Source: a virus | Lineage: Duplodnaviria; Caudoviricetes | Direction: 5' to 3' (one strand) | IMG/VR virus record: IMGVR_UViG_3300035703_002708 | DNA: 64,000 nt | Translations under genes and position numbers: made by a program | Shown here: in pieces, positions 2,910 to 7,561 of the stretch | Numbering within the stretch: the first letter of the stretch is position 1 | Layout: each line of letters starts with the position of its first letter | The notes under the pieces: model-generated | Databases searched by the model: none | Told to the model about the DNA's origin: nothing | What the model saw: the letters and a program-made list of their open reading frames with translations, nothing else

Positions 2910-2975
2910 AATACTAATTTTTTAAAAATATTTAAATTTAATCGGTATTTCAGATAATTTTTGTATATTTGTCAA

Positions 2976-4037
2976 ATGTTAGAAACCTTAGAGAAATATC
3001 ATAATGAGGGGTTACTTTATAAACAAGTACACCCCTCTTTACCTCTAACCATATGGAACTACACTGAAAAGGTTCAATATGAAGGGTTATGGGATGATAT
3101 TACTCTAATGTCAAGAGGATTAGTGACCGACGATAAAGGAAATGTAGTTGCGAGACCATTTAAAAAATTCTTCAATTTAGAGGAATCAAAACATACTCCG
3201 ACTGAAAAGTTTGATGTATATGAAAAGATGGATGGGTCTTTGGGAATATTCTTTTATTATAATGGTGGTTGGGTAATGGCGACTAGGGGTTCATTTACTT
3301 CTGACCAAGCGGTGAAGGGTTATGAAATGATGTTTAAATATGATTTTGCATCACTACATAAGGACTACACTTATCTATTTGAAATCATATACAAAACAAA
3401 CCGAATAGTGGTTGACTATGATTTTGAAGATGTGGTTTTGTTAGGTATGATAAATACCAAGTCAGGTTATGAGGTTGATTTATATAGTGGGTCCGTGGAT
3501 GTTAGATTAAAAAATCTGATAAACAATTTAGGTTTCAAAGTCGTAAAAAAATATGATGGAATAAACGATTATAATACCTTAAAATCTATGGTGAGAGATA
3601 ACGAAGAGGGTTTTGTTGTTCGTTTTTCCAACGGAGATAAAATGAAAATCAAAGGTGAGGAATATTTGAGATTACATAAAATAATGACTCAAGTATCTAC
3701 CACTTCTATATGGGAAGTATTAAGTAACGGTGATGATATAGATGTATTGTTAAAAGATGTTCCTGATGAGTTTTATAACAAGGTAAAAACTTATGTTGGT
3801 AAATTAAAATATGCACATTATCAAATATCTGAATACTGTGGTAAGTATCACGATAGTTATAGATATGGGAAATATAATGATAAAGAGGTGGAACCAACCA
3901 AAAAGGAGTTTGCTGAGTTTGTTCAGAAAAATTTTGATAAAAAAGAACTCCACGCCGTTATGTTCGCCATGTGGGATAAAAAAGATTATTCTTCCATAAT
4001 ATGGAAATTAATAAAACCAAAATATGAAAAACTTTAG
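2976..4037 (+). CDS. T4 Rnl1-like RNA ligase
   Basis: Motif I YEKMDGSLG, RGLV...ARPFKKFFN, LFEII and EGFVVRF; ATG 2976 follows TATATTTG (2964-2971) by 4 nt. Confidence 0.85.
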   Translation: MLETLEKYHNEGLLYKQVHPSLPLTIWNYTEKVQYEGLWDDITLMSRGLVTDDKGNVVARPFKKFFNLEESKHTPTEKFDVYEKMDGSLGIFFYYNGGWVMATRGSFTSDQAVKGYEMMFKYDFASLHKDYTYLFEIIYKTNRIVVDYDFEDVVLLGMINTKSGYEVDLYSGSVDVRLKNLINNLGFKVVKKYDGINDYNTLKSMVRDNEEGFVVRFSNGDKMKIKGEEYLRLHKIMTQVSTTSIWEVLSNGDDIDVLLKDVPDEFYNKVKTYVGKLKYAHYQISEYCGKYHDSYRYGKYNDKEVEPTKKEFAEFVQKNFDKKELHAVMFAMWDKKDYSSIIWKLIKPKYEKL

Positions 4038-6392: not shown

Positions 6393-6422
6393 TTGACAAC
6401 TGAAAAAAAATACTTAACTTTG
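6393..6422 (+). promoter_or_regulatory. Bacteroidota sigma70-type promoter for the ncRNA/tRNA transcript
   Basis: TTG(6393-6395)-N19-TAACTTTG(6415-6422), followed by boxA-like GTTCTTTAA at 6442-6450. Confidence 0.7.
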
Positions 6423-6457
6423 TCAAACAATAATTCAGAAAGTTCTTTAAAGTATAA

Positions 6458-6572
6458 GTTACTGAAACAGTCTAGGTCCGTAGGGCTACTGTTGTATGTG
6501 AGGAAAGTGACTACGGGACTCCTTCGCATTTAAAGTGTAAGTGAAACATATTACCGCAGCGGTTATAGTAAC
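6458..6572 (+). ncRNA. Unassigned structured RNA A (multi-stem, loop-loop pseudoknot)
   Basis: Hand-paired helices 6458-63/6567-72, 6466-71/6488-93, 6494-99/6546-51, 6501-08/6518-23 and 6553-56/6560-63; loop-loop pairing TCCGTAG(6477-83)/CTACGGG(6511-17). Confidence 0.55.
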
Positions 6573-6578
6573 AAAAGT

Positions 6579-6664
6579 AATTCAGAAAAGAGGTCTAGTG
6601 TGAACCTGACTAAATAGTATGACTTCGGTCATCGTTTTTGCGAGTCTGTAGCACGTTCTGAATT
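6579..6664 (+). ncRNA. Unassigned structured RNA B / tRNA leader
   Basis: 9-bp closing stem AATTCAGAA/TTCTGAATT, inner AGGT/ACCT and GACT/AGTC stems, and an ATGAC-TTCG-GTCAT hairpin. Confidence 0.45.
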
Positions 6665-6675
6665 TTTTACGGTAT

Positions 6676-6750
6676 GGCGGGGTAGACTGGAGAAGGCACC
6701 AGCTGAGTCTCATAAGCTCAACCACGCAGGTTCGATTCCTGCTCCCGCAA
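6676..6750 (+). tRNA. tRNA with CAT anticodon (Met; initiator versus elongator/Ile2 identity unresolved), CCA not encoded
   Basis: Acceptor GGCGGGG/TCCCGCA, D-arm CTGG/CCAG, anticodon arm TGAGT-CTCATAA-GCTCA, T-arm GCAGG-TTCGATT-CCTGC; followed by CTA rather than CCA. Confidence 0.9.
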
Positions 6751-7097
6751 CTAGTGACCCGTTTACGGTGGAATCGGATGAAGCCACCTAATTTTTCGGG
6801 ATGACGAAAAAAAACAAAAAAAAGAATGTGTCCGGGGGAGTTTTGTTTAATATTTAGGCTCTTGTTATGTGTTTCACACCCCTCACCCGTGAAATCAGAA
6901 AAAAAAGACCACCTTTTATAGTGTGTGCGTAGATGTGATAACCACACCTTTCGTTTGAGGTTCATCAAAACGAATAAAAAATGGGCTTAGTCACCCATTT
7001 AACACATCCGTCGAGTGGTCGAACGATTCGAGTTAATTGCTCACTACAATTAAACTTGGGTTTATTGGAAACCTAACCACAAAACCAATAGCCAAAT

Positions 7098-7130
7098 AAG
7101 GGTTATCACTTCGGTGGTTACCCTTTTTTT
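7098..7130 (+). terminator. Intrinsic terminator of the ncRNA/tRNA transcript
   Basis: GGGTTATCAC-TTCG-GTGGTTACCC followed by a T7 run. Confidence 0.8.
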
Positions 7131-7153
7131 ATTTTATATAAATTGTAAGAAAC

Positions 7154-7190: not shown

Positions 7191-7561
7191 TGGTGGAGAT
7201 GCGGGGTGCTGCCCCCCGGTCTTGCTCACTTTGGTAATTAAGGACTACGTAAATAGGTCAACATTAGTTCTTAATGTTCCGAAATATTGATTTTCTTACT
7301 CAGAAAACCACAAACGAGTTTTGTTTCTTTTAGGATAGAAACCACACCCTACCAGTACTTCTGTTCCGAGGTTATATGTACGCCGACCCGAAGTAGTTTC
7401 GCCTTAGGCTACTGCTACAGTTTCAGAAGTACGAACAAGTCCTACAGCTGAAAGTTTGTTGATAACGTTTCCGTCTAATTGTTAAGTCAGTTTTACAAGG
7501 TTAACTCAGCCTCGTTACGCCCTTAATTAGCAACCGTGCCAATCGATGCTATGTCATCCCC
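7191..7561 (-). ncRNA. ssrA: tmRNA (one-piece, 371 nt), predicted tag (A)GNVINKLSAVGLVRTSETVAVA*
   Basis: 5' GGGGATG pairs with 3' CATCTCC-A-CCA including G3.U70; internal tag ORF 7472-7404 preceded by the UAGAC resume context; promoter TTG-N19-TATATTTG at 7618-7589 (-). Confidence 0.93.

Follow-up and report, generated by a model that had tools for sequence, protein, structure and literature searches.

The locus examined here raises a simple question: does a short stretch of phage DNA with no protein to encode specify a structured RNA, and if so, what could that RNA do? The stretch covers positions 6458 to 6572 of a window of 64,000 nt, by which we mean the whole DNA that was analyzed. It lies directly ahead of a tRNA-Met gene, with a convergent tmRNA gene beyond. 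With a GC content of about 0.32, the phage DNA of the window is rich in AT. An earlier note on the sequence had taken it to come from a phage, and this is borne out by genes for the terminase large subunit, the portal and the major head protein; a T4 Rnl1-type RNA ligase, a calcineurin-like phosphoesterase and a ClpB-like ATPase are also encoded. As the note had stated, no open reading frame covers the element on the + strand, and the element is richer in GC than its flanks (0.42 vs about 0.32–0.35). The note described an RNA with nested helices and a loop–loop pseudoknot, and proposed it as a candidate for a new class of phage noncoding RNA.

This is almost certainly a real new family of structured RNAs. 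Rfam 15 (4227 models), searched both with gathering cut-offs and with permissive filters at E ≤ 10, gives no family for 6458–6572; the only overlap is Atu_C9, with 11.6 bits and an E of 1.4, which ends at 6492. The corresponding elements of related phages likewise have no match in Rfam. No description of this RNA is found in the literature on GOLLD, ROOL and the RNAs of tRNA islands, and its core sequence words are found in none of the papers searched. An automated catalogue contains 8,495 unnamed candidate RNAs from IMG/VR (PMC10690425), and this RNA may already be listed there.

A 19-mer of the element is present in 25 IMG/VR contigs, and further loci were added from viral, metagenome and genome collections by means of patterns which free different parts of the element. 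The family is found as one copy per locus in about 105 viral or metagenomic loci, which represent some 70 distinct sequences, since the IMG/VR and JGI loci are partly duplicates. Strong conservation and covariation over these loci, together with the absence of an Rfam match, uphold the new class. A covariance model of the whole RNA (R1) has exactly one match in each of 95 loci, with 57–178 bits, and 11 further matches beyond them. The element in the window scores 135 bits (E 1.6e-37, the E-values of these models being rough), and the 735-kb uncultured phage record LR756501.1 scores 87.8 bits. A single copy is found in all five whole viral records, including a 100%-complete genome of 140 kb and a 95%-complete genome of 188 kb. 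A search of 185,579 species genomes yields the core pattern once, in a MAG contig of 16.5 kb. The form found in the window has no blastn match in 50,697 GenBank phage records; the 735-kb uncultured record is the only one matched, and solely by a divergent query. The length of the RNA ranges from 115 to 186 nt, and the window carries the minimal form of 115 nt.

As shown by the comparison of relatives, the predicted fold consists of two three-way junctions stacked on each other, one of P1, P1a and P2 and the other of P2, P3 and P4, which are linked by a 7-bp kiss of the P1a loop with the P3 loop. P1 is formed by 6458–6464 and 6566–6572 (+ strand), with seven base pairs, one of them G-U, and all nine of its model pairs have compensatory changes. 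This helix is the closing stem GUUACU(G)/(U)AGUAAC of the earlier note, which had also predicted the 7-bp pairing of two loops, UCCGUAG (6477–6483) with CUACGGG (6511–6517). The note was right about both, because the comparative fold retains them with strong covariation. Five of the seven pairs in the kiss have compensatory changes. When the kissing strands are taken at fixed offsets, without use of the alignment, at least ten distinct strand pairs are found, and every one is complementary. Examples are UCCGUAG/CUACGGG, UCUGUAG/CUACAGA, UCCAAUC/GGUUGG, UCUAGUC/GGCUAG, UGCCAUC/GGUGGC and UGCAGUC/GGCUGCG.

The inner helices are not those first proposed. P1a is a hairpin at 6469–6487 (+ strand), in which AGUC (6469–6472) pairs with GGCU (6484–6487) around an 11-nt loop, UAGGUCCGUAG (6473–6483). 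It is paired in 99.2% of cells, two of its four pairs have compensatory changes, and pairing is kept in the variants GGGU/GCCC, UGUU/GACA, GGUU/GGCC and CAUU/GGUG. P2 is a long-range helix between ACUGUUG (6488–6494) and CAGCGGU (6557–6563), both on the + strand, and six of its seven pairs have compensatory changes, in the MAFFT alignment and in the model alignment alike. The note had instead drawn a hairpin at 6466–6493 with the stem AACAGU/ACUGUU, which is paired in 80% of cells and gone in distant relatives. The conserved stem there is AGUC/GGCU, and ACUGUUG belongs to P2: in distant relatives it pairs close to the 3' end and not with the 5' flank. Another of the hairpins then proposed, CCGCAGCGG (CCG/CGG), is paired in 64% of cells, and its sequence is the 3' strand of P2.

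The clade of the window has a peculiarity in this region. Its AACAGU (6466–6471) is complementary to the 5' strand of P2, and RNAfold prefers the resulting hairpin. This alternative hairpin (6465–6494 in the window) covaries within the clade, where AAUAGU is found with ACUAUU, and is absent from distant clades; it may represent either an intermediate of folding or a switch.

P3 is a hairpin of eight base pairs at 6496–6529 (+ strand), formed by AUGUGAGG (6496–6503) and CUUCGCAU (6522–6529), with an 18-nt loop (6504–6521). It is paired in 100% of cells; four kinds of change are found, all of them one-sided, and pairing is kept. The loop contains the 3' strand of the kiss and an insertion site after 6519. 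In the earlier drawing this hairpin had an AGGA/UCCU stem nested inside a GTATGT/ACATAT helix. The first is replaced by the 8-bp helix, of the UAUGUGAGG type, while the second has zero compensatory changes and clashes with P2, P3 and P4. Relatives may carry one of three optional insertion types, of 31–70 nt, at this single site in the P3 loop; none is present in the window. The minimal form is also found in independent lineages (L112, L115, L119 and L120, with 119–121 nt). The commonest insertion, found in L004, L018, L057 and others and lacking in the window, contains a nearly invariant ACUGUAUGAAAYAWAGCAG, a core that looks like a kink-turn or a loop E.

P3 and P4 are separated by the nearly invariant junction UUAAA (6530–6534, + strand). 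P4 (6535–6555, + strand) starts with the pair G6535–C6555, followed by the bulged U6536, a helix of GUAA (6537–6540) with UUAC (6551–6554) and the loop GUGAAACAUA (6541–6550). All five pairs have compensatory changes and 100% of cells are paired. The first pair is G-C in 46 sequences and U-A in 10, and is unpaired in none. Several parts of this region are invariant or nearly so across clades: U-AUGUGAGG-AAAGUGA, CUUCGCAU, UUAAA, the bulged U and the UG..A of the P4 loop. P1, P1a, P2, P4 and the kiss, unlike this core, drift freely. Because the invariant helix and junction sit among freely covarying helices, the core looks like a specific binding or active site, as far as can be judged from sequence comparison.

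The structural model has 40 pairs. Over 60 distinct sequences, pairing holds in 96.4% of 2,263 cells, and compensatory changes are seen at 27 of the 40 pairs, most pair counts being taken from the model-fitted alignment, which favours the structure. P2 and P4 covary equally in the MAFFT alignment, which is not fitted to the model. None of 500 shuffles matches the real alignment on any measure, and pairing falls to 36–48% in controls where the partners are slid. The folding energy is uninformative as evidence, because that of the 115-nt element is not above chance (z = −0.21). The covariation fold has −14.6 kcal/mol, with about −8.7 extra for the kiss, vs −26.6 for the competing fold of minimum free energy (RNAfold). 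It is the comparative data that make the decisive case for the predicted structure.

The surroundings of the element in the window show how it may be expressed. A promoter-like site lies at 6393–6422 (+ strand), with TTGACA (6393–6398), a 16-nt spacer and TAACTTTG (6415–6422). The last word fits the Bacteroidota-type −7 word TAnnTTTG, a promoter type that the sigma-70 promoter scan does not cover. We infer a promoter function from these words; most relatives have an identical TTG...TAnnTTTG cassette ahead of the RNA. Judging by the promoter words alone, the host may belong to the Bacteroidota. The leader (6432–6452, + strand) follows, with AAUUCAGAA (6432–6440), which is complementary to 6656–6664, and then the boxA-like AGUUCUUUAAAG (6441–6452). 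Nearly all relatives with their own promoter have a short hairpin at this place and then a GUUCUUUGA/AA word, which is boxA-like by its sequence. Promoter (TTGACA/TAnnTTTG), boxA-like word and tRNA-Met are thus found in the order that had been claimed.

The tRNA-Met gene (CAU anticodon; 6676–6751, + strand) is detected by ARAGORN and by the Rfam tRNA model, and apparently shares a transcription unit with the 115-nt RNA. Its Rfam score is low, 32.7 bits, and in the Rfam alignment it has a G1/A72 mismatch atop the acceptor stem. Between both genes lies a conserved ORF-free stretch of ~85 nt (6579–6664, + strand), closed by AAUUCAGAA/UUCUGAAUU, which we call domain 2 and which is outside the 115-nt RNA family. 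It is found in 15 window-like loci. It has its own promoter in L012, L016, L057, L065 and L086, where another structured RNA and then GOLLD follow. Its inner hairpin covaries between clades (AUGAC/GUCAU, GUGAG/CUCAC and GUGAU/AUCAC), and it has no match in Rfam.

On the 3' side of tRNA-Met, ~380 nt (6752–7133) are ORF-free and rich in hairpins, and are kept in window-like loci. A terminator-like hairpin with a T-run (7100–7130) closes this stretch, which may contain further small RNAs. The tmRNA gene is on the − strand (7191–7561, from ARAGORN and Rfam scans of the window); its leader has TATATTTG (7596–7589) and the boxA-like AAGTTCTTTAACA (7578–7566), and follows the same logic as that of the + strand unit. 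Neither GOLLD nor ROOL is detected by the Rfam scan of the 64-kb window. Upstream of the RNA, the phosphoesterase (1506–2168) and the Rnl1-type ligase (2961–4037) suggest an RNA-repair module, and in 26 related loci the ligase gene is syntenic, ~2.6 kb ahead of the RNA. The window phage is probably a jumbo phage, since the nearest relative contig is rated only 14% complete at 40.8 kb.

In the family as a whole, the gene is placed among the stable-RNA genes of phages, in "RNA islands" with tRNA, tmRNA and GOLLD genes on the same strand. Most loci have the order promoter, short hairpin, GUUCUUUGA/AA word, RNA, A-rich spacer, second promoter with the same leader, GOLLD and tRNA-Met; GOLLD (>300 bits) is 0.5–0.9 kb downstream of the RNA, and a convergent tmRNA is found past tRNA-Met. 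The window-type loci (about 15) have the RNA, domain 2 and tRNA-Met, and lack GOLLD. Other copies are found in tRNA arrays: in L098, L099, L036, L102 and L070 the flanking tRNAs are 2–7 nt off the ends of P1, and in L098, L093 and L100 the RNA is in the middle of the array, with tRNAs on both sides. The arrays of L071 and L100 contain suppressor-type tRNAs with CUA and UUA anticodons (ARAGORN), which hints at stop-codon recoding in these phages.

ROOL adjoins the RNA, within about 0.8 kb, in L100 (5569–6169) and L108 (8371–9064). These loci belong to two divergent lineages of huge phages; other lineages pair the RNA with GOLLD. A permuted (two-piece) tmRNA, RF04321, is found directly downstream of the RNA in L037 (3389–3697, 58.6 bits) and also in L038, L048 and L074. 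In a 229-kb phage contig (L116), a small SRP (4.5S) RNA, RF00169 (5261–5348, − strand; 47.2 bits, above cut-off), begins 3 nt downstream of the RNA, with GOLLD next. An SRP RNA carried by a phage is unusual. Finally, the RNA is alone among protein genes in L063, L104, L094, L061, L030 and LR756501.1.

These arrangements bear on the way in which the RNA could act. There is no constant neighbouring protein family across loci, where synteny is found only at the level of lineages, and no terminator or expression platform was found behind the RNA; both facts argue against a cis regulator. An action in trans is plausible from the layout of the loci: the gene stands between tRNAs, ahead of GOLLD or of tmRNA, or by itself, and no one gene always follows it. 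An orphan aptamer which senses a small molecule or an ion without a classical expression platform is thus hardly to be expected. Its junction, its loop–loop kiss and its invariant unpaired nucleotides do recall aptamers of the purine and lysine type, but it has no constant gene downstream, no terminator and no stem which sequesters a ribosome-binding site, and is found between tRNAs.

Cis action could also take another form, that of a co-transcriptional element which modifies the polymerase, or which guides the processing or folding of the RNAs downstream. HK022 put and EAR, which are processive antiterminators, are the model for such an element. In the window and in most relatives, the RNA is the first element after the promoter, right behind the boxA-like leader, and same-strand genes are always downstream. 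A role of this kind on the downstream RNA is possible because, in loci with their own promoter, no terminator precedes the next unit, and a conserved target on the polymerase would account for the invariant core. However, the copies in the middle of arrays have tRNAs on either side, in most loci a separate promoter and boxA leader serve the downstream unit, and the layout of a tRNA slot bounded by P1 resembles that of an excised product. We regard the co-transcriptional element as distinctly unlikely.

The neighbours of the RNA are themselves RNAs whose ends need processing, which brings up a new ribozyme that would cleave itself or act on the precursors of neighbouring stable RNAs. The compact pseudoknotted fold, with an invariant core of helix, junction and loop and a periphery which tolerates insertions, would suit a ribozyme. 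On the other hand, no known ribozyme family is matched, a conserved candidate cleavage site cannot be named, and processing sites are already provided by the tRNAs on its flanks, so that we find a catalytic role very improbable.

We tentatively favour, at close to an even chance, a trans-acting particle which binds a conserved macromolecular partner. The RNA would be made by the host polymerase, in some loci (the window among them) from a strong promoter of the host type with an rRNA-style boxA leader, and in others within the precursor of a tRNA array. Transcription would reach a high level, and the untranslated unit would be antiterminated. Enzymes which trim tRNAs would then release the RNA at the ends of P1, and it would act in trans as a compact particle. 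Its invariant P2/P3/P4 junction would dock a conserved partner in the translation or RNA-processing machinery of the host, and the particle might serve as a decoy, a sponge or a cofactor.

The covarying kiss allows a different reading, in which the 7-bp loop–loop pairing is intermolecular and the RNA self-assembles into dimers, rings or a small cage, a miniature counterpart of GOLLD and ROOL. In these two RNAs, kisses found by covariation and regarded as tertiary, bridge B4 of ROOL and bridge B7 of GOLLD, proved to be intermolecular by cryo-EM (bioRxiv 10.1101/2024.12.08.627333), and so serve as bridges between subunits. The pseudoknotted phage RNA manA, of less than 200 nt, is reported to form a 60-mer cage (bioRxiv 10.64898/2026.07.01.735769), as do other RNAs below this length. 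GOLLD or ROOL adjoins the family in many loci, and covariation of the kiss fits pairing in cis or in trans equally. Against assembly, the linkers of 4 and 7 nt in the loops permit an intramolecular kiss, and the kissing strands are not self-complementary palindromes. By analogy with the large RNAs self-assembly may be proposed, but it seems unlikely.

In addition, an obligate partnership with GOLLD or ROOL is ruled out by the 95%-complete genome of 188 kb (G002), where the RNA is present and both others are absent. Any assembly must therefore stand alone. A broader conjecture also appears improbable to us: either the kiss bridges molecules, the RNA being a ring or cage subunit and the smallest of the GOLLD/ROOL kind, or the rRNA-like junction discussed below captures a ribosomal protein or an assembly factor during infection.

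To our knowledge, GOLLD and ROOL, the RNAs with spectacular structures found in phage tRNA islands, have no known function. The RNA described here is a third island RNA beside them, far smaller and, with a minimal form of 115 nt, easier for experiment. Its secondary structure is supported by covariation, and the invariant core marks its business end. The family ranges from 40-kb contigs to a 735-kb phage. Because some carriers have GOLLD beside it, some ROOL and some neither of them, the family gives a handle on the role of the islands beyond tRNA supply, and its size suits direct tests of structure, binding and assembly.

Comparison with known RNAs excludes a number of identities. ARAGORN and Rfam recognize the adjacent tRNAs but never the element, which is therefore no tRNA or tRNA-like gene. 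The element has no Rfam match to 5S rRNA, SRP RNA or 6S RNA, the SRP RNA of L116 being a separate neighbour. GAGGAAAGU, followed by the pseudoknot strand, presumably resembles RNase P RNA. Nevertheless, no RNase P family is matched at E ≤ 10, the partner of the pseudoknot strand is 5' of it and not near the 3' end, and the stretch which looks like CR-V is variable, being the covarying 3' strand of P2. A look-alike of the cobalamin box, suggested by a short word, has no model support. As for a mimic of the sarcin–ricin loop, the word in question (GUAUGUGAGGAAAG) is base-paired, as the 5' strand of P3. A double T-loop docking on the tRNA elbow (UUAAA and UGAAA) may also be discarded, as a 5-bp helix lies between the pentads and the distance is too great. 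No model of the HDV-like, twister, pistol, hatchet or hammerhead ribozymes is matched; the order of strands is a-b-c-a'-c'-b' here vs a-b-c-c'-a'-b' in HDV.

The P2/P3/P4 junction shows a resemblance to 23S rRNA, at E. coli 1056–1088, which we take to be the GTPase-associated centre (H42/H43/H44). Both have an 8-bp hairpin which opens with A-U, U-A and G-C, then a wobble, followed by the 5 nt UUAAA and by a helix with a G-C first pair and a 1-nt bulge. The two also agree in helix lengths, in 13 nucleotides and in a hairpin closed by AUG/CAU. H92 with 2562–2572 repeats this module within 23S rRNA. When a sub-model of the junction (R2) is run on E. coli rrnH, the H92 region ranks first, weakly (12.5 bits, E about 0.06), and the GTPase centre ninth (5.2 bits, E about 5.5). 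The whole model R1 finds only trivial hairpins in rrnH. Unlike the GTPase centre, the RNA has a U as bulge and not A1088, and the A1067 and A1095 loops are absent. Furthermore, its P3 loop kisses P1a, whereas in the 23S module the hairpin loop packs on a second hairpin. A mimic of the 23S centre is thus not supported by model significance, as the similarity of R2 to the centre is weak and the bulge and loops are unrelated. The rRNA-like junction may be a weak lead to a partner, for example uL11 or the H92 helicase, as a resemblance and not as membership.

In purine and lysine riboswitches, the helices of a junction are held parallel by loop–loop pairing. The RNA shares with them helices which radiate from a junction, a loop–loop kiss and invariant junction nucleotides, but its kiss consists of seven Watson–Crick or wobble pairs and links the loops of two junctions, and it has no expression platform or regulated gene. 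It is closer in kind to manA, likewise a small pseudoknotted phage RNA which is often near tRNAs, and by analogy a role in assembly is possible; however, the Rfam manA model does not match and the layout of helices is different.

The comparison with GOLLD (RF02032) and ROOL (RF03087) shows both sides most clearly. There is no similarity of sequence or model, and R1 never matches inside either of them. The RNA is not the variable 5' region of GOLLD, since a promoter and a boxA leader intervene between both and GOLLD is absent from the window, from window-like loci and from G002. GOLLD and ROOL have 600–800 nt, while the new RNA has 115–186 nt and its own promoter. On the other hand, all three are found in large phages, beside tRNAs and tmRNA and on a shared strand, with a promoter and a boxA-type leader in common, and all three have covarying kissing pairs.
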